Position numbers and translations under genes: made by a program
NCBI GenBank assembly: GCA_963720545.1
Contig: OY970399.1
Span: 3,168,001 to 3,232,000 of the forward strand
Direction of reading: 5' to 3'
DNA length: 64,000 nt
DNA from: an uncultured Acidobacteriota bacterium
GTDB lineage: Bacteria; Acidobacteriota; Vicinamibacteria; Fen-336
Notes under the pieces: generated by a model
The model's input: the letters and a program-made list of their open reading frames with translations, nothing else
What the model was told of the DNA's origin: nothing
Databases searched by the model: none
Shown here: in pieces, positions 9,762-64,000 of the stretch
Numbering within the stretch: the first letter of the stretch is position 1
Layout: each line of letters opens with the position of its first letter

Positions 9762-9774
9762 AAGGCCAGGACCA

Positions 9775-12162: not shown

Positions 12163-12164
12163 AC

Positions 12165-25797: not shown

Positions 25798-25859
25798 GCC
25801 CGATCCTAGCAGGCGGCTCGCCGGCGCGAGCCGCCTCGATTGCCGCCCATATGCGCGGC

Positions 25860-29383: not shown

Positions 29384-29500
29384 GAGGGGACCTCCGCCGT
29401 CTGTGCGTCTACTGCGACCTCAACGTCGTGAAAATATGTGAACTATACGCCGCTGCCAGGATTTACAACCCTGCCGATACTGACTTGCGTGAACTTGAAC

Positions 29501-30650: not shown

Positions 30651-30726
30651 GATGAGTGGCTCTTTGGTGGGGAAAGCGATCAGTGGTGGAACTTAGCACG
30701 CGCACCGAAGCCGGGCCGATGGCACT

Positions 30727-32715: not shown

Positions 32716-32718
32716 TTC

Positions 32719-34614: not shown

Positions 34615-34628
34615 TACACTTCCGCGGC

Positions 34629-34979
34629 GTGCACGCCTTCATCACCGGGATCGCCATCAGGATCGGGCAATATTTCTGGCACCGCAAGCTGCTCATGGCA
34701 GCGAGCGCCATCCTGTTGGTCGAGCTGTTCCTGCGCTACGTCCTGCCGCGCTCGCGGGCGTATTCACTGTGGACCCGGGCTTTCCAGGCGGTCGGCAAGG
34801 TATGGACGGTGGTGCTTCTCTCCATCATCTATCTGTTGTCAGTCGGCCCCATCGCCGTGGTCATGCGTCTCCTGGGCAAGGACATGCTCGACAAGCGGGT
34901 CGAGACGGAACCGTCGTTCTGGCGTCATCACGAACCAGGTCCGTTGCCGCCGGCGGCCGCCGCGCGACACCAGTTCTGA
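34629..34979 (+). CDS. SxtJ-family membrane protein
   Basis: Hydrophobic 116-aa ORF with PIAVVMRLLGKDML, SFW and a QF end, directly upstream of the carbamoyltransferase. Confidence 0.75.
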   Translation: MHAFITGIAIRIGQYFWHRKLLMAASAILLVELFLRYVLPRSRAYSLWTRAFQAVGKVWTVVLLSIIYLLSVGPIAVVMRLLGKDMLDKRVETEPSFWRHHEPGPLPPAAAARHQF

Positions 34980-34988
34980 GGTGAAGTG

Positions 34989-36731: not shown

Positions 36732-36746
36732 GCGGCACTACCCCGG

Positions 36747-39073: not shown

Positions 39074-39085
39074 CGTCGCCGGGAT

Positions 39086-40387
39086 CTAGCGCCGGATGTC
39101 CAGGCCGTACAGGCTCTGGAACGCGGCGTACACGGTTTCCGCCGCGACGCTGGTGATGGTGACGCCGCCCTCGGTCTGCGCCGAGCTGACCGCCTGGCTG
39201 TTCGACTTGTTGCCGGACAGCTCGAGCCGCGCGATGCGGACTGCGTGCAGCGGGTCGAGCGCGCCGCCCGAGATCTCGTTGTCCACCAGGAACCAGTCCT
39301 CGCCGCCAGTGATGTAGATGGACGAGCACTCCCACACGGCGCCGTCGCCGCAGGCCCGCCGCGGCCCGGTCATGTTGCTGATCTGGTTGCGGACCGCATA
39401 CGACTTGCGGTCGCGCGCCTCGCCGCCGAGGTCGCCGCCCGCGAAGATGCCGATGGTGCAGTCGTGCAGGTTGTTGGCGAGGAACCAGACGTTCTCGCTG
39501 CCGTACTGGTAGCCGACGCATGGGCCGGGATTGAACGAGGCGGCGGAGTTGCCGAACACCTCGTTCTCGGAAACGATGATGTCCTTGCCCATCTTGATGC
39601 CGATGCCGCTCTGGTTGGTGGGACCGATCTTGTTCTTGCCGATGTACACGGAGCTGATGGTGCCGCGCCCGCTTTCGTAGGGGTAGGGGTTCACCTGCAC
39701 GCCGTCGCCGCTGTTGCGGTACGCCTCGTTCTCCAGGATCCAGACCCGCCGCGAGCCCTGGCCGGGCGAGATCGCGTGCGCGTCCTGGTCGAAGCGCGCG
39801 TGGGTGTCGCCGCGGTCGTGCACCTTGTTCCTGTAGATGACGATGTCCGAAGCGTCGCCGATGCCGATGCCGGCGCTGGCACCCTGCTGCGAGTACGGGC
39901 CGGAGATGTCGGAGTTGCGCAGCGCGATGTGGTCGCCGGTGAGGCCGATCGTCGCTTCTTCGCCTGCGAACACCAGGCCGTCGAGGATGCACCAGCTGCC
40001 GCGCACCAGCCAGGAGCCGGTGATGCGGTGCCCCTCGCCGCCGACGATGAAAGCGGGCGCGGCCTGGGTGCCGGCGCAATGGATCTCTTCCTCGCCGTGG
40101 GTGCCGCGCACTTCGACGACGGCGCCGGGCCCGACGTTTTGCAGCGCCTCCGGCCCGTCGGCGAACGCGGTGGCGGCGCCGTGGGTCTCCTTCAGGCCAA
40201 GCGGCGGGTCCGGGATGCCGAGGTACTGTCCGCGCACGCCCAGAGAGCCGGTGGCGGATCCGCCGCCCGGCGCGTCCGCGTCGCCGCCGTCGTTCGTGTC
40301 GCTCGCCCCGCAGGCGGACGCGCACAGGCACATGGCCAGGACGACAAGCACTCTTGCAAGGCCCGGAGGCATCTCGAACTTGAACAT
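39086..40387 (-). CDS. Lipoprotein with right-handed parallel beta-helix (pectate-lyase-like fold)
   Basis: Hydrophobic signal ending ASAC, then Asn/Gly-rich coils (YRNKVHD, LENEAYRNSGDG, SENEVFGN, ANNLHD). Start codon uncertain (40402, 40387 or 40372). Confidence 0.75.
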   Translation of the reverse strand: MFKFEMPPGLARVLVVLAMCLCASACGASDTNDGGDADAPGGGSATGSLGVRGQYLGIPDPPLGLKETHGAATAFADGPEALQNVGPGAVVEVRGTHGEEEIHCAGTQAAPAFIVGGEGHRITGSWLVRGSWCILDGLVFAGEEATIGLTGDHIALRNSDISGPYSQQGASAGIGIGDASDIVIYRNKVHDRGDTHARFDQDAHAISPGQGSRRVWILENEAYRNSGDGVQVNPYPYESGRGTISSVYIGKNKIGPTNQSGIGIKMGKDIIVSENEVFGNSAASFNPGPCVGYQYGSENVWFLANNLHDCTIGIFAGGDLGGEARDRKSYAVRNQISNMTGPRRACGDGAVWECSSIYITGGEDWFLVDNEISGGALDPLHAVRIARLELSGNKSNSQAVSSAQTEGGVTITSVAAETVYAAFQSLYGLDIRR

Positions 40388-40398
40388 GACCGTCACCG

Positions 40399-41367
40399 TC
40401 AACGTTCGCCGGGGGCCGGTGCGGCCTCGCTGCTGCGCGCCAGACGTCTTGCGATGCTGGCGCTCACTGCCGCGAACTCGGCCTGCGAAGCGAAGTCCCT
40501 CTCCAGGCGCTGCATGTAGGGCGCCATCTTGCTGCGACGTTCTGCCGAAGAACCGGGGCCGTCCGCGTACATCATCGCGAGGTCGACGACGGTCCAGAAG
40601 TACGAAGGATCCTGGCGCAACGAGAGGAGGTAGAAGTGTTCCGCGGCGTCACGATTCCCCAAGGCATTGTACGCCGCGCCCCGGAGGTAGTCGATGCGTC
40701 CTGGCTTCGCCGGTGACGGCCAGCGCGCCGCAGCGGGCAGGAGCGCGAGGCCCCGTCCGGGCTCGCCGTGCTCGATCAGCCAGTGGGCCGCTTCTGCATC
40801 CGCTTCGCGCCGGTCGCGCAGCCAGCTGGTGCCGAGGGCACCGGCAATGAGGACGCCGGTGAGCAGCGTGCCGGCGAGGCTTCGACCGCGCTCGGCGCCC
40901 GCGGCGCCACGCGGCGTCCGCATGCGCGCGTAGAGCCACGCGGCCAGGGCGAGCGCCGCGAACAGTGCGGTCTCGGCCAGCAGGCCCGCGGGGATCAGGC
41001 CCTGCACCGGGCCGAAGGCGCGCGTCGAGAGCGGCCAGAGCAGCATGCGGTCGCTCGATTGCAGCATGTCGAGCACGTCGTGGAGGGCAATCGAGCCGAG
41101 GGTGATGACGAACGCGGCGCGCCGAGAGACCCCGAGTGCCCGGCGCACCGGGAGGGTGAGCAGAAGCGCGTAAAAAAAACCGCAGGGAAGCGAGTGGCTG
41201 CATGCCCGCGCCGCCGCCACGCCCAGAACAGCCAACACCTGGCTTGCAACATCTGGTGCATACGCCAGGACCGCCAGGGTGAGAAGTGTGAACCGACGTG
41301 TCACCAGACGTTCACCCAGGACCTCCCGGGCCGCAATTGCGGTCAGTCCGTGACCCACTACGGGCAT
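40399..41367 (-). CDS. Membrane-bound metal-dependent hydrolase (YdjM-like) with C-terminal TPR-like region
   Basis: VGHGLT, APDV, SHSL, ALHDVLD, LLWPLS motifs followed by a helical TPR-like segment. Confidence 0.7.
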   Translation of the reverse strand: MPVVGHGLTAIAAREVLGERLVTRRFTLLTLAVLAYAPDVASQVLAVLGVAAARACSHSLPCGFFYALLLTLPVRRALGVSRRAAFVITLGSIALHDVLDMLQSSDRMLLWPLSTRAFGPVQGLIPAGLLAETALFAALALAAWLYARMRTPRGAAGAERGRSLAGTLLTGVLIAGALGTSWLRDRREADAEAAHWLIEHGEPGRGLALLPAAARWPSPAKPGRIDYLRGAAYNALGNRDAAEHFYLLSLRQDPSYFWTVVDLAMMYADGPGSSAERRSKMAPYMQRLERDFASQAEFAAVSASIARRLARSSEAAPAPGER

Positions 41368-44420: not shown

Positions 44421-44478
44421 CCGCCGTTCCCCTTCGGCTACCGGCTTGTAGATCGCCTCAATGCCGTATGGATTACCC

Positions 44479-45117
44479 ATGAAGAACTTCCATCCCCTGA
44501 TCCTTTCGAGCCTCCTCTGCGGGAGCGGCAGCGTCGCGTTGGCGCAAGCTCCTGCGGCCAGCCCCCGCCCCGCAGCGGCGGCGCCGGCTTCGGTGCCAGC
44601 CTCGGCACCAGCACCTCGCGATCCGCGCTCCGAATACCGCATCGGCTCCGGCGACGTGCTGCAGGTCTACGTATGGAAGGAACCCGACCTGTCGCGCGAC
44701 GTCACGGTGCGCATGGACGGCAAGATCAGCGTGCCGCTGCTCGGCGATGTCGAGGCGGCGGGGCGCACGCCGCAGCAACTGGGCGCCGAGCTCGCCACCG
44801 GCTGGAGCAAGTTTCTCGCTGCGCCGCAGGTGACGCTGGGCGTCGTCCAGCCGAACAGCACCCGCTTCTACGTTCTGGGCAAGGTCGGAAAGGCGGGCGA
44901 GTTCCCGCTCACCGGACGCGTCACGATCCTGCAGGCGCTGGCGCTCGCCGGCGGCACTTCCGAATACGCCAAGACCGACCAGATCGTGGTGATTCGCCAG
45001 GACCCGGGGCAGGGAGGCCAGACCTTCATCCCGTTCAATTACAAGCGCATCGAGGAAGCCAAGGACATCGCGCAGAACATCCTCCTGCGCCCCGGCGACA
45101 CGATCATCGTCCCGTGA
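44479..45117 (+). CDS. wza: Polysaccharide export OPX (Wza-like) protein, short periplasmic type
   Basis: YRIGSGDVLQVYVW, VRMDGKISVPLLG, YVLGKVGKAG, LQALALAGG. Ends at LRPGDTIIVP with no C-terminal membrane helix. Confidence 0.88.
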   Translation: MKNFHPLILSSLLCGSGSVALAQAPAASPRPAAAAPASVPASAPAPRDPRSEYRIGSGDVLQVYVWKEPDLSRDVTVRMDGKISVPLLGDVEAAGRTPQQLGAELATGWSKFLAAPQVTLGVVQPNSTRFYVLGKVGKAGEFPLTGRVTILQALALAGGTSEYAKTDQIVVIRQDPGQGGQTFIPFNYKRIEEAKDIAQNILLRPGDTIIVP

Positions 45118-46436
45118 CGTCCGCGACGCCGGGCCGCAAGCCAAGCCGTTGCCTGTGCTCGTTGTTCGCGACCGCCTTGCTGCTCGGCGGGCTGGCAGCG
45201 CCGGTGCTTGCGCAGGCTCCATCCGGCCCGCCCGATACGCAGGTAGGTCAGCCGGTGCAGGGGCCGCCGCCCCCGTCGAGCCGCCCGGCGCGCCGCGAAC
45301 CGCGCTTCTCGCTGTGGGCGCGCGCCGAGGAGAGCTACGAGGTGAACCCGCAGCTGCGGCAGGACGGCGACGACCTCAACTCGTTCGTCGACAACCTCAG
45401 CGCCGGGCTCGGCTATACATTCCGCGGCCCGCGCGGCGACCTCACGTTCAACGTCGACGGCGGCCGCCTCAACTATCACGACCTTCCCGACCTCAGCCGC
45501 TGGACCTACGGCGGCGGCGTGAAGGGCCTCTACAACTTCTCGCCGCGAGCCTCCTTCGCGGTGCGCGAGCGTTACACCGTCTCGGCGCAGAACGCTGCCG
45601 CCGTGCTCGAGTCGAGCGGCCTGCCGGTGTCGCTCGTCAACAGCCGCACCAACGCGGCCGACGCCAACCTGCACCTGGGCGTGACCCGTCGCACCAACCT
45701 CGACCTCGGCGTGCGCCACGAAAAGATCACCTTCGACGCAGACGCCTCGCTGCCCGGCACCGGCCCGCTGGTCAGCGGTAACGTCCTCACCGCCGACGCG
45801 CGGCTGTCGCGCCGCATCGGCAACGAGGACAACATCGGGCTCGGCTACTCGTATGCCTTCAACCTCGTGAGCGGCACCGGCGCCGACGTCCAGACAGCCT
45901 ATCTCTCGTGGAGCGGCCGCCTCGGACGCCGTGTCGGCGCGGCCCTCACCGGCGGCGCCAGCAGGCTGTCGCCGCTCGAGGTGACAGGGGTGCCCGGAGT
46001 GCCGCCGGATCCCACGGCGCCGCCGATCGCGCCGATCGCGGCGAAATGGCGGCCTTCGGGTTCCGCCGCCCTGACAGCCGAGTTCCGCCACGGCTCGCTC
46101 GGCGCCGGATATTCGCGCACGGTCGGCCAGGCATTCGGCTTCGGCGTCGAGCGCGTCGCCGACATCGCAGCGCTGTACGGCGACCACCGTTTTGGCCGCA
46201 ACACCACGATGAGCTTCAACGGCAGCTTCGGCCGCACCCGCGAGGCGAGCGGGTCCGACGTCAACAGCTTTGACACGATATCCGCGGGTGCCGCGTTGCG
46301 ACACCTGCTGTCGCGGCGTTTCGAATTGAACGGCGGCTACACCTACGGGCGGATCAAGCCCGCCGACACGCTCATCGCCCCTTACCGGACGGGCCGCGCC
46401 TTCCTGGCGCTCGCATACGGCAGGCTGCGCGAATGA
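45114..46436 (+). CDS. Outer-membrane beta-barrel protein associated with polysaccharide export
   Basis: Signal peptide, alternating amphipathic strands (SAGLGYTF, GVKGLYNF, LGYSYAFN, LNGGYTY, FLALAY). GTGA overlap with wza. Confidence 0.75.
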   Translation: MTSATPGRKPSRCLCSLFATALLLGGLAAPVLAQAPSGPPDTQVGQPVQGPPPPSSRPARREPRFSLWARAEESYEVNPQLRQDGDDLNSFVDNLSAGLGYTFRGPRGDLTFNVDGGRLNYHDLPDLSRWTYGGGVKGLYNFSPRASFAVRERYTVSAQNAAAVLESSGLPVSLVNSRTNAADANLHLGVTRRTNLDLGVRHEKITFDADASLPGTGPLVSGNVLTADARLSRRIGNEDNIGLGYSYAFNLVSGTGADVQTAYLSWSGRLGRRVGAALTGGASRLSPLEVTGVPGVPPDPTAPPIAPIAAKWRPSGSAALTAEFRHGSLGAGYSRTVGQAFGFGVERVADIAALYGDHRFGRNTTMSFNGSFGRTREASGSDVNSFDTISAGAALRHLLSRRFELNGGYTYGRIKPADTLIAPYRTGRAFLALAYGRLRE

Positions 46437-46470: not shown

Positions 46471-47463
46471 TTGAAACTCGCAAAGCTGAAGTCGGCGGTT
46501 AAGTCGCTTCACGCCTCGCGCCACGCGTGGCGCCTCGGGCGGCCGTTCCATCCGCGGGGGGTCGCGGTCCTGATGTACCACCGCATCGGCCGCGTCGCGC
46601 CGTTCTATGGCCTCGACCCGGAGACCTTTCGCAAGCACATCGAGTGGCTCGCCGCCAACTGCGAGATCGTCGCGCCGCAGGACCTGCAGGAGAGCTGCCG
46701 CCTGAGCAAGAGCAGCCGCCGCCGCAAGGTGGTGCTCACGTTCGACGACGGCTTCGCCGGCTACTACCAGCACGCTTATCCGGTGCTGAAGCGCCACGGC
46801 GCGCCCGCGGCGGTGTTCCTCGCGACCGCCTCGATCGACGACCCATCGCTGTTGATCTGGCCGGACCGTGTGACCCTCGCGGTGACGCGCACCGAGCGCC
46901 AGTCGATCGCGGCGCCGTGGAACGAGCGGCTGCATTGCGACCTGTCGACGCCGCGCGCCCGCCGGGTGTTCATCCACGACTTCAAGATCGCCGCCAAGCT
47001 GGCGCCCGACGCGGAACGTCGTCGTATGATCGAGCAAATGCTCGCGGCGCTCGACATCCGCGACCTGGCCACCTCCCGGCAGATGATGAACTGGGACGAA
47101 GTGCGCGCCGCATCCGACCTCACCACCTGGGGCGGCCACACCCACACGCATCCCGTCCTCAGCAGGGTAGCCGACGCAGACCTCGACTACGAGGTGCGGA
47201 TGTCGCGTGACCGGATTGCGGAAAACACGGGATCGGCGCCGCGATTCTTCGCCTACCCGAATGGGCGGACGATGGATTACGACGAGCGCAGCCGGGCCGC
47301 CTTGAGCAAGTACGGTTTCGAGATCGCCTTCGCCACCGATGAAGGGCTGAACGGGCCGGCCACCGACTGGCACGCCGTCCGCCGGCTGCCCGGCGACTGC
47401 AACGTCGCCGAGCTGGCATGGATGCTGTCGGGCCTTGGCGCCGCCGGACGGAACCCGACCTGA
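46471..47463 (+). CDS. Polysaccharide deacetylase (CE4/NodB)
   Basis: VLMYHRI, LTFDDGF, GGHTHTHP, FAYPNG. Confidence 0.9.
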   Translation: MKLAKLKSAVKSLHASRHAWRLGRPFHPRGVAVLMYHRIGRVAPFYGLDPETFRKHIEWLAANCEIVAPQDLQESCRLSKSSRRRKVVLTFDDGFAGYYQHAYPVLKRHGAPAAVFLATASIDDPSLLIWPDRVTLAVTRTERQSIAAPWNERLHCDLSTPRARRVFIHDFKIAAKLAPDAERRRMIEQMLAALDIRDLATSRQMMNWDEVRAASDLTTWGGHTHTHPVLSRVADADLDYEVRMSRDRIAENTGSAPRFFAYPNGRTMDYDERSRAALSKYGFEIAFATDEGLNGPATDWHAVRRLPGDCNVAELAWMLSGLGAAGRNPT

Positions 47464-48632
47464 GGCAAGCATTCATCTTCGGCCGCAGCGTGACTGCGCT
47501 CGCGGCAATGCGCTCGTTCGGCGCAGCCGGGATACCGCTACGGGTGTTTGGCGCAGCGGGCACGTTCGCGGTGCGCTCGCGCTATTACAGCCGGCATCCG
47601 CAGGTCAGCGGCGAAGACCTCGTCGAAGCGCAGCTCGCCGGCTTTCTCGAGAGCCTGGGCGGCGAGGGCGCGGTGCTGTTCCCCTGTTCGGACGACTGGC
47701 TGAAGGCGGTGGCGGCGCTGCCCGCGACGTTGCGGCAGCGCTTCCCGACTTCGCTGCCGGCACCCGAGACGATCGAGGACTTCGCCGACAAGCTGCGTTT
47801 CGCGGGCGTGATGCAGCGACTGGCGCTGCCGCACCCCCGCACCCGGCTCATCTCCTCGGCGGCGGAGGTCGATGCTCTGCCCGACGACGCCTTCCCGCGC
47901 TCGTTCCTGAAGCCCGCGAACTCGCAGGCGTTCGCGCGTGTCTACAGCGCCAAGGCGTTCCGGCCGACGACCCGCGCCGAAGCCGCGGCGGCGTGGCGCA
48001 TGGCCCACGCCGACGGCCACGTCCTGCTGTTCCAGGAATACATCCAGGGCCCGCCCAGCGAGCACTACTTCGTCGACGGCTTCATCGACCGCCACGGCAC
48101 GCCGCGCGCCGTGCTGGCGCGCCGCCGGGTGCGCATGGATCCGCCCGACCTCGGCAACAGCAGCCAGATCGTCTCGGTGCCGCCCGACGAGATCCGGCCC
48201 GCGCTCGACGACACGCTGCGGCTGATGCGCGCGGTGTCGTACCGCGGGATCTTCAGCGTCGAGTTCAAGCACGACCGGGCGGACGGCCTCTACAAGTTCC
48301 TCGAGGTGAACGCGCGGCCCTGGTGGTACCTGGCGTTTGCCGCGCACTGCGGCATGGACGTGGCGCGGATGGCGTACGCCGATGCGCTTGAACAGGACGT
48401 GGCAACCATCGCGAACTACAAGGTCGGCGAGCGCTGCACCTACCTGCTGCCCGACTTCAAGGCCGCGCGGCGTGCGATCCGCGCCGGCGACCTCAGTTAT
48501 GGAGCGTGGCTGCGCAGCCTGCGCGGCTCGAGCTGGCCGGTGTTCGAGTGGCACGATCCCGGACCAGCGCTCGCGATGCTGTCGCTGCACGTGCCCGCCT
48601 TCTTCCGCCGCAGCCCAGGGCAAGAACGGTGA
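47418..48632 (+). CDS. ATP-grasp carboxylate-amine ligase (D-aspartate-ligase-like)
   Basis: LFPCSDD, LKPA, FQEYIQG, SVEFKHD, FLEVNARPW, DPGPA. Exact start uncertain. Confidence 0.82.
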   Translation: MDAVGPWRRRTEPDLRQAFIFGRSVTALAAMRSFGAAGIPLRVFGAAGTFAVRSRYYSRHPQVSGEDLVEAQLAGFLESLGGEGAVLFPCSDDWLKAVAALPATLRQRFPTSLPAPETIEDFADKLRFAGVMQRLALPHPRTRLISSAAEVDALPDDAFPRSFLKPANSQAFARVYSAKAFRPTTRAEAAAAWRMAHADGHVLLFQEYIQGPPSEHYFVDGFIDRHGTPRAVLARRRVRMDPPDLGNSSQIVSVPPDEIRPALDDTLRLMRAVSYRGIFSVEFKHDRADGLYKFLEVNARPWWYLAFAAHCGMDVARMAYADALEQDVATIANYKVGERCTYLLPDFKAARRAIRAGDLSYGAWLRSLRGSSWPVFEWHDPGPALAMLSLHVPAFFRRSPGQER

Positions 48633-50299
48633 ACGGCGCCGAGCGCGTCTGCGCCACCCTGGGAGCATTGGGCTCCGATACCGTCTTCGGGTTGCCCGGC
48701 AGCCAGAACGTCGGCCTGTACGCGGCGGCGGGGCAGTCGCCCCTGCGGCTCTGCGGCGCCACCTCGGAGACCGCCGCCGCCTTCATGGCCAATGGCTACG
48801 CGCGCGCCACCGGCGCTCCGGGAATCCTGTTCACGATCCCCGGTCCCGGGTTCGCGTTCGCGCTGCCCGGCATCGCCGAGGCGTGGCTCGACTCCGTGCC
48901 GCTCATACACTTTACGGGCATGCCGGCGCGCGCCCCGGGTCGCGCCTTCCAGCTGCAGGCGATCGACCAGGCGGCGATGGCCAGGCCGGTCGTGAAGGCC
49001 GTGATCGAGGTGCAAGCGGGCGCCCAGGTGGATGCGGCCGTGCGCGAGGCGCATGCCCTGAGCCTCGCGGGCGAGCCGGGGCCGGTGCTGGTGCAGCTGG
49101 CGCCGGAAGCGCTCAGCGAACGGGCCGACCCGGGCCGCGCCGCGCCGCCGATGCCGACCTTACAGGCGCAGCCGGATGGCGCTGCGCTCGAGGCGCTGGT
49201 GGCGCGGCTGCGTGCGGCGCATCGCCCGCTGCTCTACGCCGGCCAGGGCGCACAGGACGAGGGTGCCTTGCTCGCGAGCCTCTGCGAAGCCGCGCGCGCG
49301 CCGCTGCTCACCACCACCTCGGGCCGCGGCGCGGTGGCCGAAAGCCACCCCTGGCTCATTGCCTCGGATCTGGCGCCCTCGGCGGCCGTGCAGGACCTGT
49401 TCGCCGCCGCCGACCTGGTGCTGGCGATCGGCGTGAAGTTCTCGCACAACGGCGCGCGCGGTTTTCGCCTGGCGCTGCCGCCGGCGAACCTGGTGCACGT
49501 CGACAGCGCACAGCGCAACCTCGGCGCCAACTACCCCGCGTCGCTGAGCCTCGGCTGCGACGCCCACCTGCTGTTGCGCGCGCTGGTGCCGCGGCTCGGC
49601 GGAGCCTCCTCGCGCTGGACCGCCGCCGAAATCGCGGCATGGCGTGTGCGGCTTGCGGCCGTAGACGGCGCGGAAGAGCCATTGCTGCGCGGCACGAAAC
49701 CGCCCGAGGCCGCCGCGTTCTTTGCGGCGCTTGGCGCGGCGTTGCCGGCGCAGGGCGTGCTGACGCTCGATTCGGGCCGTCACCAGATGCTGGCGCGGCG
49801 GCACCTGCGCATCAAGGGGCCGCGCAGCTTGATGGCGCCGACCAACTTCCAGTCGATGGGCTACGCGATTCCGGCGGCGATCGGCGCGCTCTGCGGCCGG
49901 CCCGACGCGACCGCGGTGGCGGTGGTGGGCGACGGCGGCTTCGCGCTCAGCGGCATGGAGCTGCTGTCCGCGGCGCGTGAGCGGTTCGACCTGACCGTGG
50001 TCGTCTGCAACGACGGCCACTACAGCCTGATTCGCGACCAGCAACTGGGCGCGCACGGCACTGCCCACGGCACTTCATTGTGGAACCCCGACTTCGCCCG
50101 CTTCGCCGCGGCTGCCGGCGTGCGCCACGTGCGCGTCCGCGGCGACCTGCACAAGGCTGTCGGCGAAATGTTGGCGCCGGGCCGCGGCGTCGTCCTGGCG
50201 GAGGTGGTGTTGCGCGATTCGGTGCGTCGGCGCCTGTCGCAGTTGCGGGACAAGGCGGCCGGGCGGGCGCGCGGGCTGCTGCGTTTCGCGAGGCGTTGA
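48629..50299 (+). CDS. Thiamine-diphosphate-dependent enzyme (acetolactate synthase-like)
   Basis: VFGLPG, ETAAAFMANGYAR, PGPG, SMGYAIPAAIGA, GDGGF...ND ThDP motif. GTGA overlap with the ligase. Confidence 0.88.
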   Translation: MNGAERVCATLGALGSDTVFGLPGSQNVGLYAAAGQSPLRLCGATSETAAAFMANGYARATGAPGILFTIPGPGFAFALPGIAEAWLDSVPLIHFTGMPARAPGRAFQLQAIDQAAMARPVVKAVIEVQAGAQVDAAVREAHALSLAGEPGPVLVQLAPEALSERADPGRAAPPMPTLQAQPDGAALEALVARLRAAHRPLLYAGQGAQDEGALLASLCEAARAPLLTTTSGRGAVAESHPWLIASDLAPSAAVQDLFAAADLVLAIGVKFSHNGARGFRLALPPANLVHVDSAQRNLGANYPASLSLGCDAHLLLRALVPRLGGASSRWTAAEIAAWRVRLAAVDGAEEPLLRGTKPPEAAAFFAALGAALPAQGVLTLDSGRHQMLARRHLRIKGPRSLMAPTNFQSMGYAIPAAIGALCGRPDATAVAVVGDGGFALSGMELLSAARERFDLTVVVCNDGHYSLIRDQQLGAHGTAHGTSLWNPDFARFAAAAGVRHVRVRGDLHKAVGEMLAPGRGVVLAEVVLRDSVRRRLSQLRDKAAGRARGLLRFARR

Positions 50300-50369: not shown

Positions 50370-50378
50370 TGATAAAAT
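50370..50378 (+). promoter_or_regulatory. Putative extended -10 for the co-polymerase/kinase/PPTase/NRPS/PKS unit
   Basis: TG-A-TAAAAT in an AT-richer intergenic gap. Alternative TACACT at 50421-50426. Confidence 0.45.
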
Positions 50379-50487: not shown

Positions 50488-52017
50488 GTGAGCGAAGAGC
50501 AAGACTTCGAGCAGGCCGGATCGCACAGCCTCAAGCGCTATCTCGAGATCCCCAAGCGGCGCCCCTGGCACATCGTGGTGCCTTGCATCAGCCTCGCCAT
50601 CGTTGCGCTCGGCGTCAGCTTCCTCATCCCCAAGCTCTACAAGACCCAGACCATGATCCTGGTCGAGAGCCAGAAGGTGCCGGAGTCGATCGTGCGCCGC
50701 AGCTCCGAAGACGAGCAGGCGAAGCCGCGGCTCGCCACCATCCGCCAGGAGATCATGAGCCGCACGCGCATCGAGACCGTGCTGAAGGAGCTGAATCCTT
50801 ACCCAGACCTCATGGGCCGAACCCCGCTCACCAGCATCGTCGAGAAGATGCGCTCCGCCACCGAGATCGTCGTCAAGGGCAACGAGGCCTTCAGCATCGA
50901 GTACGTGCACGAGGACCCGAAGAAGGCCATGGAGGTGACCAACCGCCTCGCCACCTTGTTCATCGACGAGACCTCGCGTTCGCGCGAAGACAGCGTCAAG
51001 GGCGCGAACTCGTTCCTCGAGGAGCAGCTTGCGGACGCGAAGAAGGAGCTCGACGAGAAAGACCGCGAGGTGCGCCGCTACAAGGAGCTGCACACCGGGC
51101 GCCTGCCCGAGCAGACGCCTTCCAACCTGGCGGCGCTCGAGCGCTTCCAGATGGAGCGGCAGAACATCGAAACGCAGCTGTCGTCCGCGCGCCAGCGCGA
51201 GTTGATGCTGGAGCGTGGCGTCGGCGACACCATCACCACCCCCAGCGGGCAGGTGGTCGCCGCCGTCGACCCGAACCGCGACCTCAACAAGGCGCGCGAG
51301 GAGCTCGCGGTGATGCGCACCCGCTACACCGACGAACACCCCGACGTGCGCGCGCAGCTGGCGCGCATCGCGCGGCTGGAGCGCGAAGCCGGCGACGCCG
51401 AGCGCCGCGCCGCCGCCACCACCACGCCGCCGGCGCCGCCCGCCGGCAACCGCATGCAGCTGGAGCAGGTGCGCAGCGACATCCGCGCCCTCGAGATGCG
51501 CAAGGGGCAGACCGAAGCGCAGATGAGCGCCTACCAGGGCCGCGTCGAGGACTCGCCGCGCACCGAGCAGGAGCTGAAGACGCTGACGCGCGACTTCGAC
51601 CAGTTGAACGAGAACTACAAGTCGCTGCTCGCGAAGAAGATCAATGCGCAGATGGCCGAGAAAATGGAGGAGCGCTGGAAGGGCGAGCGCTTCAGCGTCC
51701 TCGACCCGGCCTACGTGCCCGAGGAACCGTACTTTCCGAACCGCACGCTGTTCGCGCTGGTGGGCGCCGTCGCCGGCCTCATCATCGGCCTCAGCCTCGC
51801 GTTCGGCGCCGAACTCTTCGACCAGTCGGTGAAGGACCAGGACGACCTCGCCGACCTCATTCCGCAGCCGGTGCTCGTGATCTTCCCGAGCATCCCGGCG
51901 ACCATCGGACCGGCCCGCGGCGGGCGCAGCGGCGGCGGCGGCTATACGGCGCGCGGCTCAGCCGACGTCCTCGAGCTCGACGAATGGCGGTCGCGCGGCA
52001 GGGCGTCCCGTGGTTGA
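50488..52017 (+). CDS. Polysaccharide co-polymerase (Wzz/Wzc-N, GumC-like)
   Basis: N- and C-terminal TM helices, coiled coil, RYTDEHPDV, FSVLDPAYVPEEPYFPNR. Confidence 0.9.
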   Translation: MSEEQDFEQAGSHSLKRYLEIPKRRPWHIVVPCISLAIVALGVSFLIPKLYKTQTMILVESQKVPESIVRRSSEDEQAKPRLATIRQEIMSRTRIETVLKELNPYPDLMGRTPLTSIVEKMRSATEIVVKGNEAFSIEYVHEDPKKAMEVTNRLATLFIDETSRSREDSVKGANSFLEEQLADAKKELDEKDREVRRYKELHTGRLPEQTPSNLAALERFQMERQNIETQLSSARQRELMLERGVGDTITTPSGQVVAAVDPNRDLNKAREELAVMRTRYTDEHPDVRAQLARIARLEREAGDAERRAAATTTPPAPPAGNRMQLEQVRSDIRALEMRKGQTEAQMSAYQGRVEDSPRTEQELKTLTRDFDQLNENYKSLLAKKINAQMAEKMEERWKGERFSVLDPAYVPEEPYFPNRTLFALVGAVAGLIIGLSLAFGAELFDQSVKDQDDLADLIPQPVLVIFPSIPATIGPARGGRSGGGGYTARGSADVLELDEWRSRGRASRG

Positions 52018-52882
52018 GTCGCGCAAGCAGAAGCGCGCCCGCGAGCGCGAGGAATACCGTCACAGCGACGGCGGCACCATCGAGCCGGGCGACCGCGACC
52101 TCCTGGCGCGCGAGCGCCCGACGAGCGACTATGACATCGAGTTCTCGTCGGCAGCCTCGCCCATGGAGGAGGTGAGCTTCGCCACCGTCGCCGAGGTGCG
52201 GCCCCAGCCCGCCTCGCGGCCGGTGGAGTCGGCGCTCGGCGAGAACCACCTCATCTCCGAGGAATTGCGCCTGCTGGTGGTGAAGCTGCGCATCATCGCC
52301 GAGCAGCGGCCGTTTCGCTGCATCGGGATAGCCAGCGCGCTCGGCAACGAGGGCAAGACGACGCTCTCCATCGGCATCGCGGCGGCGCTGGCGCGCGAGA
52401 CCGACACCAACGTGCTGCTGCTCGAGGCCGACCTGCGCCGTCCCGGCATCGAGAACTCGCTCGGCCTGCCGGCGGTGCCCGGCGTCGGCGAATGGATCCA
52501 GGGTGAACCCGGTCCGGTGGCGCTGCGCGTGGTGACTCCGCCCGGATTCTCGGTGCTGAGCGCCGGCAAGACCTCGTTCGAGCGCCCCGAACTCCTGAGC
52601 GGCGGGCGCATGAGCAGCCTGCTGCGCGCCGCGCGCCAGCAGTTCGACTACGTGGTCGTCGACTGTCCGCCGATCCTGCCGGTGGCCGACACCGTCATGC
52701 TGCAGGACCGCCTCGACGGCTTCCTGCTGGTGGTGCGTTCGCGTGCCAGCCCGCGCGAAGCCGTGAAGCGCGCCGCTGCCGCGCTCAAGCCCGACCGCAT
52801 CCAGGGGATCTTGTTCAACGACAGCCAGGAAGCCCTTCACAGCTACGACAAGTACTACTCCCACTACCGCTATCGCCAGTAA
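52010..52882 (+). CDS. CpsD/CapB-family BY tyrosine kinase
   Basis: Walker A SALGNEGKTT, A' LLEADLRRP, B VVVDCPP, C-terminal Tyr cluster YDKYYSHYRY. Confidence 0.92.
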   Translation: MVESRKQKRAREREEYRHSDGGTIEPGDRDLLARERPTSDYDIEFSSAASPMEEVSFATVAEVRPQPASRPVESALGENHLISEELRLLVVKLRIIAEQRPFRCIGIASALGNEGKTTLSIGIAAALARETDTNVLLLEADLRRPGIENSLGLPAVPGVGEWIQGEPGPVALRVVTPPGFSVLSAGKTSFERPELLSGGRMSSLLRAARQQFDYVVVDCPPILPVADTVMLQDRLDGFLLVVRSRASPREAVKRAAAALKPDRIQGILFNDSQEALHSYDKYYSHYRYRQ

Positions 52883-52892
52883 CCGCGCCGGC

Positions 52893-53672
52893 ATGCTCGG
52901 CGAGGGGGAAGTGGTCTTTGCGTTCGTGCCGCTCGACCATGAACCCGGACCCGCCGAGCACGCCTTGATCGACGCGGAAGAGCGCGCCCGCAGCGAACGC
53001 TTCGTGTACCCCGCGGACCGCCGCCGCTACGTGGTCGCACACGCGGCGTTGCGCCAGTTTCTCGCCGCAACGCTTGGGATCGCGGCCGATGCCGTCCGCT
53101 ACGCCGGAGCAGCGCTCGGCAAGCCGCGGCTGCGTAGCGCCGGCGCCGACGGTCCCTTCTTCAACATGTCGCATTCGGGCGAATTCGCGCTGCTCGCGGC
53201 GACTCGCTGCGGCCCGCTCGGCGTGGACCTCGAGGCGCAGCGCGAGGTGGCCCTGCTTGCCGAGGTCGCCGCAAAAAATTTCTCCGCGGCCGAGTGCCGC
53301 CAGCTCTTCGACCTCCCGCCTGCGGACCATGCTGGGGCATTCCTTCGCTGTTGGACGCGCAAGGAGGCGCTCATCAAGGCCGACGGGCGTGGTTTGTCGC
53401 TGCCGCTCGACAGTTTCGACGTGGAGCTTTGCGGCGGCGCCGGCAACCTCCTGCTCCGGGCTGCCGACGCCGCCGGGCTCGACGGCAGCAAGACTTGGAG
53501 CATCAACGACTTGAAGGCGCCCGTGGGCTACGCCGCCGCCGGCGCGCTCGGCACCGGCGTGTGTCTTCCCGCACGCTGGCGGGAGGTTGTGGGCCCGTCA
53601 CTGGGCGGCGCGAACCCGCACGCTAAGATCGCTTCATCCATGCAACCCAATGGGCCGGGCGGCCGCGCGTGA
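52893..53672 (+). CDS. Sfp-type 4'-phosphopantetheinyl transferase
   Basis: GKP, FNMSHSG, GVDLE, WTRKEALIKADGRGL. Confidence 0.92.
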   Translation: MLGEGEVVFAFVPLDHEPGPAEHALIDAEERARSERFVYPADRRRYVVAHAALRQFLAATLGIAADAVRYAGAALGKPRLRSAGADGPFFNMSHSGEFALLAATRCGPLGVDLEAQREVALLAEVAAKNFSAAECRQLFDLPPADHAGAFLRCWTRKEALIKADGRGLSLPLDSFDVELCGGAGNLLLRAADAAGLDGSKTWSINDLKAPVGYAAAGALGTGVCLPARWREVVGPSLGGANPHAKIASSMQPNGPGGRA

Positions 53673-53682
53673 GCCGCACAGC

Positions 53683-60003
<6,321 letters not shown>

Positions 60004-63000
60004 GTGAGCTACCAGGACGCCTACGATCCCGAAGAGGGCATCGCCATCATCGGCCTCGCCGGCCGCTTCCCGGGCGCCGCGGACGTGGACGAATTCTGGC
60101 GCAACCTCGAGGCCGGCCGCGAGACGATCGCGAGCTTTGCGCCCGGCGAACTCGAGCCGGCGCTGGGCGAAGAGGCGCCGTCGCGCAACGACCCCGCGTA
60201 CGTGCGCGCGCGCGGCATTCTCGAGGGCATCGACCTCTTCGACGCGTCGTTCTTCGGCATCACGCCGAAGGAGGCCGAGATCCTCGACCCGCAGCAGCGC
60301 GTGTTCATGGAGGCGGCCTGGCACGCCCTCGAGAACGCCGGCTACGACGCACGCGCCTTCGGCGGCGCCATCGGCGTGTTCGCGGGCATGAGCAACAACA
60401 CCTATTTCCGCGAGAACCTCGCGGCGCGTGCCGACGTCACCGACCTGGCGGGCTGGCTGACGACGATGATGGCGAACGAGAAGGACTATCTCGCGACGCG
60501 CATCGCCTACAAGTTCGACCTGCGCGGCCCGGCGCTCAACATCCAGACCGCGTGCTCCACTTCGCTGGTCGCCGTGTGCGCCGCGGTGCAGAGCCTGCTG
60601 ACCTACCAGTGCGACCTGGCGCTTGCCGGCGGCGTCTCGATCACGCTGCCGCAGCGGCGCGGCTACCTGCACCAGGAGGGCGGCATCACCTCGAGCGACG
60701 GCCATTGCCGCACCTTCGACGCGAGCGCCTCGGGCACCGTCTTCAGCAATGGCCTGGGGCTCGTCGCCCTGCGCCGCCTGCGCGACGCGCTCGCCGACCG
60801 CGACACGATCTACGCGGTCATCAAGGGCGCCGGCATGAACAACGACGGCTCGGCGAAGGTGAGTTTCACCGCGCCCAGCGTTTCCGGGCACGCCGCCGTC
60901 ATCGCCCTTGCGCAGGCGCTCTCCGGCATCGACCCGCAGACGATCTCCTACGTCGAGGCGCACGGCACCGCGACACCACTCGGCGACCCGGTCGAGCTTG
61001 CGGGATTGACGCAGGCGTTTCGCGCCGGCGGTGCCGCAGGCACCGGTTTCTGCGCGATCGGCTCGGTGAAGAGCAATGTCGGCCACCTCGACGCCGCCGC
61101 CGGCGTCGCGGGCCTCATCAAGACGGCGCTGGCGCTGCACCACAAGACGCTGCCCGCGAGCCTGCACTTCCAGGCGCCGAATCCCAAGCTCGAGCTCGAG
61201 TCGTCGCCCTTTCGCGTGGTGACGGCGCGCGAGGACTGGCGGCCGGCTCCGGGCTTTCCGCGGCGCGCCGCGGTCAGTTCGTTCGGCGTCGGCGGCACCA
61301 ACGCCCATGTGGTGCTCGAAGAGGCGCCGCCGCACGCAGGAGCCGGCGGCGGGGACAGCGACGGCGAACAACTGCTGGTGCTCTCGGCGCGCTCGCGCGA
61401 AGCGCTCGATCTCGCGACCGGGCACCTCGGCGAGTATCTCGCGAGCCGCAGCGACATTGCGCTCGCCGACGCCGCGTTCACGCTGCAGGCGGGCCGCCGG
61501 CGCTTCAACCACCGGCGCGCGCTGGTGGTGCGCGATCGCGCCGACGCGCTGCAGCAGCTGGCGGCGGCGGGGAAGGCGGTCGCAACCGAGAGCGCCGACG
61601 AGGGCCGCACGGTTTCCTTCCTGTTTCCCGGACAGGGCTCGCAGGCGCCGTCGATGGCGCGCGGGCTGTACGACGGCGACCCGGCGTTTCGCAGCGACAT
61701 CGACGAGTGCGCGCAGGTGCTGCGCGCCGCCCTCGGCTTCGACTTGCGCGAAGTGCTCTATCCGGCGCCGGCACAGGAAGCAGCGGCGGCGGAGAGACTG
61801 CTGCAGACTTCGGTCACGCAGCCGGCGCTGTTTGTCGTCGAGTACGCGCTGGCGCGTGCGTGGCAGCGGCTGGGCGTCGAGCCCGACGGCATGCTGGGCC
61901 ATTCGGTCGGCGAGTACGTCGCCGCCACGCTTGGGTCGGTGTTCACCCGCGACGACGCCCTGCGCCTCGTGGCGCAGCGTGGCCAACTGATGCAGGCGCT
62001 GCCGCCGGGCGCCATGCTCGCCGTGAAGGCCGGCGCCGAAGCCGTGGCGGAGCTGCTGGCCGCGTTCGATGGCGCTGGCGTCGAGATTGCCGCCCGCAAC
62101 GCGCCGCTCCTGACCGTGGTCTCCGGGACGGAAGAGAAGATCGCCGCCTTCGAGGAGCGCGCGCGCGGTGCGGGCCTCGCCGCGAAGCGCCTCGCCACCT
62201 CGCACGCGTTCCACTCGGCGATGATGGAGCCGATCCTCGAAACCTTCACGAAGCTGGTGGCCGCGACGCCGCGCAGCGCGCCGCAGCTGCCATGGGTCTC
62301 GAGCCTCACCGGCACGTGGATCACGACCGCCGAGGCGCAATCGCCGGCGTACTGGGCCGAGCAGCTGCGCCGCCCGGTGTTGTTCGCCACCGGCGCTGCG
62401 ACGCTCCTCGCCGATCCACGGCGGGTCACGCTCGAGGTCGGGCCAGGCCAGCAGCTCACGGGTCTCGTCCGCCAGACGGTTCAAGGCCGCGCCGGTGCGG
62501 CATCGCTTGCGCCTTCGCTCCTCGCGGCGGCCGCTCGCTTGTGGACCGTCGGCGTCGACCTCGACTGGACGGCGTTCCAGCAAGGCGCCGCGCGGCGACG
62601 TGTGCCGCTCCCCGGCTATCCGTTCGAACACAAGCGCTATTGGGTCGAACCCGGGACCCAGGCGCTGCCCCCGGCCGCCGTCGCCTTTTCACAACCGGAA
62701 CAACATGAGGAACAGCAGATGACAGTCACCGCCGTTTCCGCCCCCGCGCGCATCGACGCCCTGGTGGTCCGGCTGCAGGCGCTCTTCTCCGACTTGTCGG
62801 GCATCGACGCCGCGAGCCTGCCGCCGGGGACCGCCTTCCTCGAACTCGGGCTCGACTCGCTGTTCCTCACCCAGGCGGCGACGCTGCTGCAGAAGACCTT
62901 CGGCGTGAAGGTGACGTTCCGCGAGCTGCTCGACGAGCTGTCCACGATCGGCGCGCTGGCCGCCCACCTCGACAAGCTCCTGCCCCCGGACGCGGCGCCC

Positions 63001-64000
63001 GCGGCGCCCGGCACGGCGGCGCATGCAGCTGCGGCAGCGCGTCCCGCGGCCGCCGCCGCGGCGGCGACATTCGCCGGTGCCGGCGGCAGCGCCGTGGAAC
63101 GCCTGATCGCCGACCAGCTCGAGTTGATGCGCCAACAGCTCGAGATGATGCGCGGCGGCGCTCCGGCCCCGGCGGCGGCAGCACGGCCCGCGGAGCTTGC
63201 GCCACAGGCGGCAGCGCCGGCGCGCGTGGTGACGAACGCGCCGCCGATCGCCGCACCGGTTGTCGCCTTCGGCCCGTACCGTCCGCCCGCCAAGGGTCCG
63301 ATGGGCGGCCTCACCGAGCGCCAGCAGCAGGGCCTCGCCGCCATCATCGAGCGCTATACGAAGAAGACCGCGGGCTCGAAGGCGGCGACCGCGAAGAACC
63401 GCCCGCACCTCGCCGATCCGCGCTCGGTTGCCGGCTTCCGCCTCATGTGGAAGGAAATCGTCTACCCGATCGTCACGGTGCGCTCTCTCGGCTCGCGACT
63501 CTGGGACGTGGACGGCAACGAGTACGTGGACCTCACCAACGGCTTCGGCATGATCTTCTTCGGCCACAACCCGCAGTTCGTGCGCGACGCGGTGAAGGCG
63601 CAGATGGACCAGGGCGTCGAGATCGGGCCGCAGTCGCCGCTGGCGGGCGAAGTTGCCGAGCGCGTGGCGCGCATGGTCGGCATGGACCGCGTCGCTTTCT
63701 GCAACACCGGCTCGGAAGCGGTCACCGCGGCGATCCGCCTGGCGCGCACGGTCAGCGGCCGCGACAAGATCGCGATGTTCGCCGGCGCCTACCACGGCAT
63801 CTTCGACGAGGTGCTGGTGCGGCCGGCAGGGCAGCGCTCGATGCCGATCGCCCCGGGCATCCCGGCCGGCATGGTCGACAACGTCGTGATCCTCGACTAC
63901 GGCAGCGACAGCGCGCTGGAATACCTGAAGGCGCACGGCTCGGAGCTGGCTGCGCTGCTGGTGGAGCCGGTGCAGAGCCGGCGCCCAGACCTGCAGCCGC
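60004..64000 (+). CDS. Type I PKS KS-AT-ACP-class III aminotransferase, partial (runs off the right end)
   Basis: Absent from the ORF track because it has no stop. GTG directly after the NRPS TAA. IAIIGLAGRFPG, QTACSTS, EAHGTAT, GHLDAAAG, AT GHSVGEY and HAFHS, ACP LGLDSL, aminotransferase WDVDGNEYVD, CNTGSEA, YHG, VEPVQSRRP. Confidence 0.95.
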   Translation, partial: MSYQDAYDPEEGIAIIGLAGRFPGAADVDEFWRNLEAGRETIASFAPGELEPALGEEAPSRNDPAYVRARGILEGIDLFDASFFGITPKEAEILDPQQRVFMEAAWHALENAGYDARAFGGAIGVFAGMSNNTYFRENLAARADVTDLAGWLTTMMANEKDYLATRIAYKFDLRGPALNIQTACSTSLVAVCAAVQSLLTYQCDLALAGGVSITLPQRRGYLHQEGGITSSDGHCRTFDASASGTVFSNGLGLVALRRLRDALADRDTIYAVIKGAGMNNDGSAKVSFTAPSVSGHAAVIALAQALSGIDPQTISYVEAHGTATPLGDPVELAGLTQAFRAGGAAGTGFCAIGSVKSNVGHLDAAAGVAGLIKTALALHHKTLPASLHFQAPNPKLELESSPFRVVTAREDWRPAPGFPRRAAVSSFGVGGTNAHVVLEEAPPHAGAGGGDSDGEQLLVLSARSREALDLATGHLGEYLASRSDIALADAAFTLQAGRRRFNHRRALVVRDRADALQQLAAAGKAVATESADEGRTVSFLFPGQGSQAPSMARGLYDGDPAFRSDIDECAQVLRAALGFDLREVLYPAPAQEAAAAERLLQTSVTQPALFVVEYALARAWQRLGVEPDGMLGHSVGEYVAATLGSVFTRDDALRLVAQRGQLMQALPPGAMLAVKAGAEAVAELLAAFDGAGVEIAARNAPLLTVVSGTEEKIAAFEERARGAGLAAKRLATSHAFHSAMMEPILETFTKLVAATPRSAPQLPWVSSLTGTWITTAEAQSPAYWAEQLRRPVLFATGAATLLADPRRVTLEVGPGQQLTGLVRQTVQGRAGAASLAPSLLAAAARLWTVGVDLDWTAFQQGAARRRVPLPGYPFEHKRYWVEPGTQALPPAAVAFSQPEQHEEQQMTVTAVSAPARIDALVVRLQALFSDLSGIDAASLPPGTAFLELGLDSLFLTQAATLLQKTFGVKVTFRELLDELSTIGALAAHLDKLLPPDAAPAAPGTAAHAAAAARPAAAAAAATFAGAGGSAVERLIADQLELMRQQLEMMRGGAPAPAAAARPAELAPQAAAPARVVTNAPPIAAPVVAFGPYRPPAKGPMGGLTERQQQGLAAIIERYTKKTAGSKAATAKNRPHLADPRSVAGFRLMWKEIVYPIVTVRSLGSRLWDVDGNEYVDLTNGFGMIFFGHNPQFVRDAVKAQMDQGVEIGPQSPLAGEVAERVARMVGMDRVAFCNTGSEAVTAAIRLARTVSGRDKIAMFAGAYHGIFDEVLVRPAGQRSMPIAPGIPAGMVDNVVILDYGSDSALEYLKAHGSELAALLVEPVQSRRPDLQP

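Follow-up and report, generated by a model that had tools for sequence, protein, structure and literature searches.

Hybrid assembly line behind a polysaccharide export operon

We analysed a 64,000-nucleotide stretch of DNA (the window) from an uncultured Acidobacteriota bacterium (assembly GCA_963720545.1; contig OY970399.1, positions 3,168,001 to 3,232,000), in which genes for a nonribosomal peptide synthetase (NRPS) and a polyketide synthase (PKS) directly follow genes for polysaccharide export. The source contig is a single sequence of 4.09 Mb with 68.7% GC. An original prediction, made from the letters, had described five open reading frames (ORFs) on the + strand, spaced by -8, 10, 10 and 0 nt; we recovered all five at the same positions (the run spans 50488-64785), and Pfam and NCBIfam agree with the product assigned to each. 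The first gene encodes a polysaccharide co-polymerase (50488-52017) with hydrophobic segments at residues 29 and 421, which scores above the cut-off for PF13807, just below it for PF02706, and 247.8 against a cut-off of 278.85 for TIGR03007. The second encodes a bacterial tyrosine kinase (BY-kinase; 52010-52882) with Walker A and Walker B motifs and a C-terminal cluster of five Tyr residues, scoring below the cut-offs of TIGR03018 and TIGR01007. Because the membrane segments lie in one product and the Walker motifs and Tyr cluster in the other, the Wzc function is split over two genes: both functions of a Wzc-type protein are present, but in two ORFs that overlap by 8 nt in different frames rather than in one fused polypeptide. 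The third gene encodes an Sfp-type phosphopantetheinyl transferase (PPTase; 52893-53672; PF01648, PF22624), the sole one detected genome-wide by a local profile model, with atypical codon use (5th percentile). Next come NRPS1 (53683-60003; 2,106 amino acids) and the PKS (1,593 amino acids), which runs to position 64785 in continued numbering from 60004 and thus extends 785 nt beyond the window end. The 10-nt gap before NRPS1 holds for the ATG at 53683; an alternative ATG at 53650 would give a 23-nt overlap with the PPTase gene.

Co-transcription from the co-polymerase through the PKS is plausible from this tight spacing, together with the lack of an intergenic terminator, a candidate -10 element and signs of coupling at the NRPS1-PKS junction. 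Our terminator scan bore out the earlier claim that no terminator is visible in the intergenic gaps: matches on the + strand fell only within NRPS1 or the PKS, and the total of 5 against a shuffle mean of 7.9 is at chance level. An extended -10-like element, TGATAAAAT (50370-50378, + strand), lies 110 nt 5' of the co-polymerase gene and is, as a pattern match, the candidate promoter of the run; a scan for consensus promoters gave 0 sites. An AGGAG motif at the NRPS1 stop, immediately 5' of the PKS GTG, suggests that the two megasynthase genes are translationally coupled. One RNA run contained 5% of sampled sequence words, too little to bear on transcription.

NRPS1 has the domain order condensation (C, DCL-type)-adenylation (A, Thr)-thiolation (T)-epimerization (E)-C (DCL)-T, so that its second module has no A domain. 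The A-domain code is DFWNIGMVHK, which we take to be a Thr code, and all catalytic motifs, including those of the E domain, are intact. A Thr code next to an intact E domain makes D-allo-Thr the expected first residue, in agreement with the original prediction. When 121 C domains were placed in a tree, the two from NRPS1 grouped with post-epimerase (DCL) domains. The first of them is conserved as much as the other domains and keeps HHALLDG; no other epimerase-bearing NRPS was found in the genome. Domain profiles and active-site motifs define the PKS as ketosynthase (KS)-acyltransferase (AT, malonyl)-acyl carrier protein (ACP)-aminotransferase, with the Cys, Ser and pyridoxal phosphate-binding Lys of KS, AT and aminotransferase all in place. 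Among solved structures, the aminotransferase matched MycA best (PDB 6KFM, E 1e-134).

The assembly line goes on beyond the window on the opposite strand. In the extended locus L001, where the PKS occupies L001:4-4785, the - strand carries genes for a JmjC oxygenase (L001:4813-5673), two alpha/beta-hydrolases (hydrolase 1, L001:5713-6621; hydrolase 2, L001:6597-7397), NRPS2 (C-A(Thr)-T, no thioesterase; L001:7394-10681), a Cys-rich protein of 321 amino acids (L001:10915-11880) and a Wzx flippase (L001:11949-13574; PF13440, 43 bits). The NRPS2 A domain has the same Thr code as that of NRPS1. Its C domain clusters with C domains fused behind the aminotransferase in the orthologous lines of genomes G064 and G069, which indicates that NRPS2 is the next module after the aminotransferase. 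Each half of the line therefore trails a Wzy-pathway gene on its own strand. Within the cassette we found one KS and no ketoreductase, dehydratase, enoylreductase (KR/DH/ER) or fatty-acyl ligase domain, and profile searches identified no dedicated exporter gene. The hydrolase genes and the Cys-rich gene resemble the PPTase gene in their atypical codon use (3rd-6th percentile for the set). The Cys-rich protein belongs to no Pfam family and matched only unnamed clusters in the Atlas, at 0.96-0.97; its homologues are kept next to the line in G061, G063, L154 and L196.

Conservation of the linkage to polysaccharide loci

To place the line among its relatives, we collected matches to the aminotransferase region. 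A whole-PKS query mostly returned unrelated KS-AT domains. Matches to the aminotransferase region were found in 12/401, 36/301, 15/301 (including the source genome) and 20/401 genomes of four samples, and a pattern scan gave 17 loci. Neighbourhoods were then read for 52 carriers, in stretches of 16-81 kb, mostly 40 kb. The four samples supplied 40 of these, chosen manually to favour long contigs and a broad spread; another 10 came from the 17 pattern-scan loci, and 2 were plasmid records. A quick aminotransferase tree with midpoint root separated a clade of 34 that includes the source locus (SH-aLRT 97) from 19 others. Gene labels came from local models seeded with Pfam-checked proteins from some of the same loci; for this reason, and since kin are not independent, we claim no P value.

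At least one of six core genes (Wza, co-polymerase, kinase, priming glycosyltransferase, Wzx, Wzy) occurs in 22 of the 33 other clade loci and in 0/19 loci outside the clade. At least two are present in 17/33 clade loci, and 25/33 have a core gene or a glycosyltransferase. Counted over non-megasynthase genes, core genes make up 58/802 in the clade against 0/278 outside it, where overlapping pieces may double-count a few. By comparison, 12% of random 40-kb windows of the source genome hold one core family and 3% hold two. The predicted linkage of NRPS/PKS to exopolysaccharide (EPS) genes thus holds well beyond chance, as a tie to polysaccharide loci in general. A full three-module orthologous line is present in 6 genomes, with 50-61% identity in NRPS1 and the PKS. 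Four of these lines (G687, G061, G063 and G064, spanning Gammaproteobacteria and Mycobacteriaceae) lie in Wzy loci, and the other two are on contigs of 16 and 30 kb with no core gene. In the wider family, Variovorax paradoxus VAI-C has the line, PPTase, both hydrolases, Wza, Wzc and priming glycosyltransferase in one co-directional run.

Several loci carry variants of this arrangement. L201 has a short version, in which NRPS1 (C-A-T) precedes a docking-thioesterase, a polysaccharide lyase, a deacetylase, a family 4 glycosyltransferase (GT4) and Wzx, with no PKS in view. Three myxobacterial loci (L032, L036 and L029) have an ACP and an acyl-ligase-like gene 5' of the line. In G067 these two genes are preceded by MBOAT and Wzx, which hints at transfer across the membrane.

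Polysaccharide genes around the line

The Wzx/Wzy-pathway features present at the source locus are the two-segment co-polymerase, the BY-kinase with its Walker motifs and Tyr cluster, Wza (PF02563) and Wzx (PF13440). The Wza/OPX export protein gene (44461-45117, +; PF02563 at 87 bits, TIGR03027 at 139 bits, below the cut-off of 180) is followed by 45255-46436 (+), which has no Pfam match and is a likely outer-membrane beta-barrel of the export operon from its position and that of a similarly placed PF10082 gene. It shares 23-29% identity with genes beside Wza/co-polymerase in relatives. Three genes lie between this pair and the co-polymerase, all on the + strand: a CE4 polysaccharide deacetylase without hydrophobic segment (46471-47463; PF01522), an ATP-grasp-like ligase of uncertain start (47418-48632; PF15632, below cut-off) and a thiamine-pyrophosphate (TPP) enzyme resembling acetolactate synthase or decarboxylase (48629-50299; PF02775/02776/00205). 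In relative G007, Wza/barrel and co-polymerase directly adjoin. The three intervening genes travel with the line across loci: the deacetylase is 31-33% identical to copies in the orthologous loci G061 and G063, the ATP-grasp-like ligase 40-41% and the TPP enzyme 46% to copies in G687 and G063. The deacetylase is a candidate maker of a free amino-sugar acceptor.

Further upstream, 29556-40402 holds glycan-tailoring genes for a UDP-GlcNAc 2-epimerase, a heparinase-like protein, an Asn-synthase-type amidotransferase, a carbamoyltransferase, two GT4 enzymes and a beta-helix protein. Within this glycan locus, the amidotransferase, a SxtJ-like small gene and the carbamoyltransferase (32719-36731) suggest amidated and carbamoylated sugars. 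The region 24468-29500 is poor in well-scoring genes and contains several short ORFs that may be broken genes, one of them a sulfatase. A separate + strand operon 31-39 kb 5' of Wza (5074-13403) encodes a priming glycosyltransferase fused to hexapeptide repeats, WecG, a Wzy_C protein and a sulfotransferase of 738 amino acids. Its priming glycosyltransferase and Wzy_C genes (6153-11190) are about 33-38 kb from Wza, and the Wzy_C family also covers ligases. We regard this operon as a candidate start of the same polysaccharide pathway and infer its link to the export operon.

Hydrolase pair and release of the chain

How the chain leaves the line may be indicated by the two hydrolases. In the clade of 34, 13 loci have the hydrolases without a thioesterase, 17 have a thioesterase without the hydrolases, none has both and 4 have neither; in G080 the thioesterase is carried on a separate NRPS. 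As the pair never co-occurs with a thioesterase, it is likely to offload the chain as a release or transfer enzyme. The fold of hydrolase 1 is that of an alpha/beta-hydrolase, and its Cys119 and His263 are invariant in 16/16 sequences. In hydrolase 2, the residue at the nucleophile position is Arg in 11 of 12 sequences (the remaining one is truncated); judged by these residues, it is a dead partner of the Cys-nucleophile hydrolase 1. The two are fused in G378, and neither has a hydrophobic segment. Against TIGR03100 and TIGR03101 they score 74.9 and 90 (cut-offs 168.45 and 202.75), and a fold search with hydrolase 1 gave no match beyond generic alpha/beta-hydrolases, at 13-20% identity. In SyrC/CmaE-type enzymes a Cys nucleophile tips the balance from hydrolysis towards transfer, a precedent that is not decisive here. 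The stand-alone thioesterase that replaces hydrolase 1 in 5 sister loci has Cys too. In these loci, which include Mycobacteriaceae, a protein made of a TubC_N docking domain and a thioesterase stands in for the hydrolase pair, with Cys for the usual Ser (for example L052:11380-12387, L023:14726-15709 and L025:14596-15579).

The pair also accompanies other megasynthases. In G020, G028 and G036, a different large PKS/NRPS with the hydrolase pair adjoins a complete Wza-co-polymerase-kinase-priming glycosyltransferase-Wzy-deacetylase-glycosyltransferase operon. In G034, at the end of a contig, the pair likewise lies next to this operon. The source genome has a second, larger cluster (G000:C1:3793934-3838138; L147, L148) of six PKS genes and a two-module NRPS, which ends in a hydrolase 1/2 pair.

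Proposed pathway and alternatives

We propose that the line builds a short Thr peptide with a 3,4-diamino-acyl unit, and that the hydrolase pair, acting in the cytoplasm, attaches it to a sugar of the lipid-linked repeat unit, which is afterwards flipped and exported. On the gene content, we give this somewhat more than an even chance. By assembly-line logic, the PPTase would prime four carriers. NRPS1 would load L-Thr and epimerize it to D-allo-Thr, with its first C domain joining a donor X, and the A-less second module would be charged in trans, probably with Thr. The PKS would extend the chain by one malonate and its aminotransferase would convert the beta-ketone to an amine, giving the 3,4-diamino-acyl unit; NRPS2 would then append Thr, and the JmjC enzyme may hydroxylate a tethered residue. 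Hydrolase 1/2 would hand the chain to the sugar while still in the cytoplasm. Genome context suggests that the acceptor is probably an amine that the neighbouring deacetylase has freed on the sugar, and that the decorated repeat would pass Wzx, Wzy, the co-polymerase/kinase and Wza. Decoration of a glycan by the product is what we infer from this arrangement.

A number of observations weigh against this proposal. The case for glycan decoration is built from gene content, and the comparison of loci relied on models seeded from some of the loci compared, non-independent kin and hand-picked examples. The original prediction of a wzc-PPTase-NRPS-PKS order was not upheld: a co-polymerase or kinase stood directly before the PPTase or NRPS1 in 0/6 genome orthologues and in 0/18 metagenome loci with flanking genes. 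In G687, for instance, the stretch from kinase to PPTase contains a barrel gene, an epimerase gene and two genes on the opposite strand. Eight of the 33 clade loci have no polysaccharide gene, five of them over a full 40 kb (G928, G1063, G229, G080 and G1341), and G1341 keeps the hydrolase pair nonetheless. These five clade members (L055 and L053 in G080 and G229, L079 and L128 in G928 and G1063, L094 in G1341) lie among genes without a polysaccharide label. The metagenome set began as 60 loci found by the first C domain, 41 of them with an N-terminal match of at least 43%; after 23 were excluded because the A domain was distant or fewer than three genes were available in the flanks, 18 were kept, mostly viewed on the upstream side. 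Only 7 of these 18 had a polysaccharide gene and 2 a core gene. In G064, by way of comparison, the sugar genes all lie downstream of the line. The closest relatives, L149, L153 and L157 (KS 76-79%, aminotransferase 77-79%; NRPS1, PKS and NRPS2 in tandem), have no sugar genes in the 7-10 kb upstream, the side in view, where there are housekeeping genes or a sigma factor with two LuxR regulators. Among 399 genomes of the phylum of G064, no carrier closer than G064 was found. In many clade members the line closes with an ordinary Ser thioesterase, and the second PKS/NRPS of the source genome has the hydrolase pair but no export operon in the flanks read. The ATP-grasp enzyme could also put amino acids on the glycan without an NRPS, as in a proposal for the flagellin glycan of Clostridioides difficile, as far as the accessible text of PMC5207246 goes. 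Finally, co-polymerase homologues occur in 25/60 relatives of the source genome and the aminotransferase in 0/60, and the export genes are nearer to relative G007 (47%, 67%) than to G687 (26%, 39%). Since relatives have the export operon without the line, and the export genes are closer to those of relatives than to those of G687, the line is an optional cassette, probably acquired, and not a required part of the native export operon. The nearest export-operon orthologue, that of G007 (L130), has as neighbours an amidotransferase gene and a gene for what is likely a discrete carrier protein, in place of an NRPS/PKS.

Other products could account for part of these data. The product might be a small diffusible glycopeptide, as proposed for carenaemin: once joined to a few sugars or a single repeat unit, the peptide would be flipped by Wzx and then released without polymerisation. 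The priming glycosyltransferase (14/33) and Wzx (16/33) accompany the line in more of the other clade loci than do the co-polymerase, the BY-kinase and Wza (6, 6 and 7/33, respectively), and such coupling is proposed from two mutants in the accessible part of PMC8313283. We nevertheless consider this outcome unlikely: the line here sits within a Wza/co-polymerase/kinase operon, whereas the two carenaemin loci, as far as that text describes them, are unlinked and encode a line with different domains and codes. It is likewise improbable, in our estimate, that the product is a free, unglycosylated peptide (a surfactant, chelator or signal) for the same biofilm state, clustered with EPS genes for co-regulation and joint transfer. 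The five clade loci without polysaccharide genes, the regulators that the closest relatives have upstream, the Ser thioesterases of many members and the loose gene order would fit a free peptide, yet related aminotransferase lines outside the clade are never found by EPS genes (0/19), glycan-tailoring genes travel with the line, and the cassette has no identified dedicated exporter.

The original prediction had also raised an anchoring role, which we considered as a lipid-like anchor holding the polysaccharide at the cell surface. The intact and conserved first C domain of NRPS1 could accept an acyl chain, but it groups with post-epimerase domains; and a single KS with neither reducing (KR/DH/ER) nor fatty-acyl ligase domains in the cassette makes anchoring very improbable. 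We give similarly little credence to a chance insertion in the source genome, by which the cassette would be unrelated to the export operon or decaying away from it. Its absence from all 60 relatives, the atypical codon use of the PPTase, hydrolase and Cys-rich genes, and a PPTase that may also serve the second PKS/NRPS cluster would suit such an insertion. All catalytic motifs are intact, however, and the same association recurs in distant groups. The locus is real and intact, and what is conserved is the kind of arrangement, not the gene order. Its best reading is the hybrid peptide-polyketide-polysaccharide pathway, which we believe slightly more than we doubt.

A broader form of the proposal is that hydrolase 1/2 acts as a general adaptor between interchangeable NRPS/PKS lines and the lipid-linked repeats of Wzy pathways. 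Many soil and water bacteria would then export polysaccharides with peptide-polyketide side chains made by such lines, here a D-allo-Thr, 3,4-diamino-acyl peptide. Its free amine could add positive charge or cross-link chains, in an extracellular analogue of peptidoglycan stems. We offer this tentatively and hold it to be possible rather than probable.

If the proposed pathway is correct, it would join assembly-line natural products and exopolysaccharide biosynthesis, fields that have been treated apart, and would account for a large orphan family: 6,690 related proteins at E 1e-50, not all of the clade, and 36/301 genomes of one order. Extraction-based screens would then miss the products because they are polymer-bound. 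Relatives of the 'exosortase A system-associated' hydrolases 1 and 2 would gain a testable job. V. paradoxus VAI-C is a cultured carrier with an annotated record.

Comparison with known systems

A literature search that left most subscription journals and supplements outside its range turned up no account of the line and none of a Wzy polysaccharide that carries an NRPS/PKS product. Polyketide and synthetase terms were not found in PMC3283707 (on EPS mutants of V. paradoxus), PMC9850573 or PMC1569441. The present locus contributes the longer D-allo-Thr subfamily with an A-less module, the control of clade against outgroup, and the mutual exclusivity of hydrolases and thioesterase. The nearest published idea, on the accessible text of PMC8313283, is carenaemin of Collimonas arenae Cal35, whose activity requires a PKS-NRPS as well as a Wzy-type locus that is not linked to it; attachment of the peptide to a repeat unit, followed by flipping, is proposed there and not demonstrated. 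Shared with the line here are the hybrid PKS-NRPS make-up, an aminotransferase, an E domain and the tie to a Wzy-type locus; carenaemin differs in its two unlinked loci, its A-domain codes and its diffusible antifungal product. We rejected membership of the carenaemin (cpl) type, as the part of PMC8313283 covered gives codes for Ser, Gln-like and Leu-like residues, a pyruvyl transferase and a thioesterase, whereas both A domains here have the Thr code and there is no thioesterase. A conserved four-gene Roseobacter cluster of NRPS, PKS, glycosyltransferase and PPTase genes, with an uncharacterised product, shares an orphan NRPS-PKS with a sugar-transfer gene and a PPTase; in the accessible portion of PMC4337385 it is described without export machinery, and the likeness is one of description.

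The domain logic of the line resembles the beta-aminating modules of mycosubtilin synthase subunit A (MycA; PDB 6KFM/6KFR/6KFU) and McyE. They share KS, ACP, a class III aminotransferase and then a dedicated C domain; the line has KS-(AT)-ACP-aminotransferase with intact motifs, and its post-aminotransferase C domain is in NRPS2. MycA and McyE are primed by a fatty acid or polyketide starter. Unlike them, the line would be primed by a threonyl peptide (it has an upstream Thr NRPS and no fatty-acyl ligase), consists of three short modules, lacks a thioesterase and is embedded in a polysaccharide locus.

The locus also recalls the XrtA/PEP-CTERM EPS loci. For its co-polymerase, kinase, Wza, amidotransferase and two hydrolases, the top-scoring models are those of the XrtA system. 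Membership was rejected: all scores (TIGR03007, 03018, 03027, 03100, 03101 and 03108) fall below the curated cut-offs, and no exosortase (PF09721) was found in the genome, which is 94.8% complete, with a control that was positive in 1/14. No PEP-CTERM protein was found either, but the control for this search was positive in 0/14, which makes it uninformative. XrtA loci have a discrete ligase and a carrier (compare the name of TIGR03098), in the place of which the locus here has a multidomain NRPS/PKS. Craig et al. reportedly linked N-acyl amino acid synthases to PEP-CTERM in 2011.

For the release step, SyrC/CmaE-type aminoacyltransferases offer a parallel. They have an alpha/beta-hydrolase fold with a Cys nucleophile, as does hydrolase 1, a likeness by feature only. 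Unlike these enzymes, hydrolase 1 is also found with lines that have no A-less module, and it takes the place of the terminal thioesterase. SyrC/CmaE-type enzymes shuttle tethered units between carriers and serve A-less C-T modules, according to the accessible text of PMC8748450. For peptides on glycans, the C. difficile flagellin papers (PMC5207245 and PMC5207246), in their accessible parts, report a peptide on an amino sugar and name ATP-grasp and FemAB-like genes; we rejected an NRPS for this peptidylamido-glycan, as the term is absent from both.

The step that we propose has its closest functional counterparts in carrier-dependent glycan acylation. In DltABCD, in Nod factor synthesis by NodA/B/E/F and in the tetronate of Vibrio cholerae O1, a thioester-tethered unit is handed to a glycan, as would happen here. 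Those systems use discrete carriers and deliver a single amino acid or acyl group, whereas the unit transferred here would be a multi-module peptide-polyketide.

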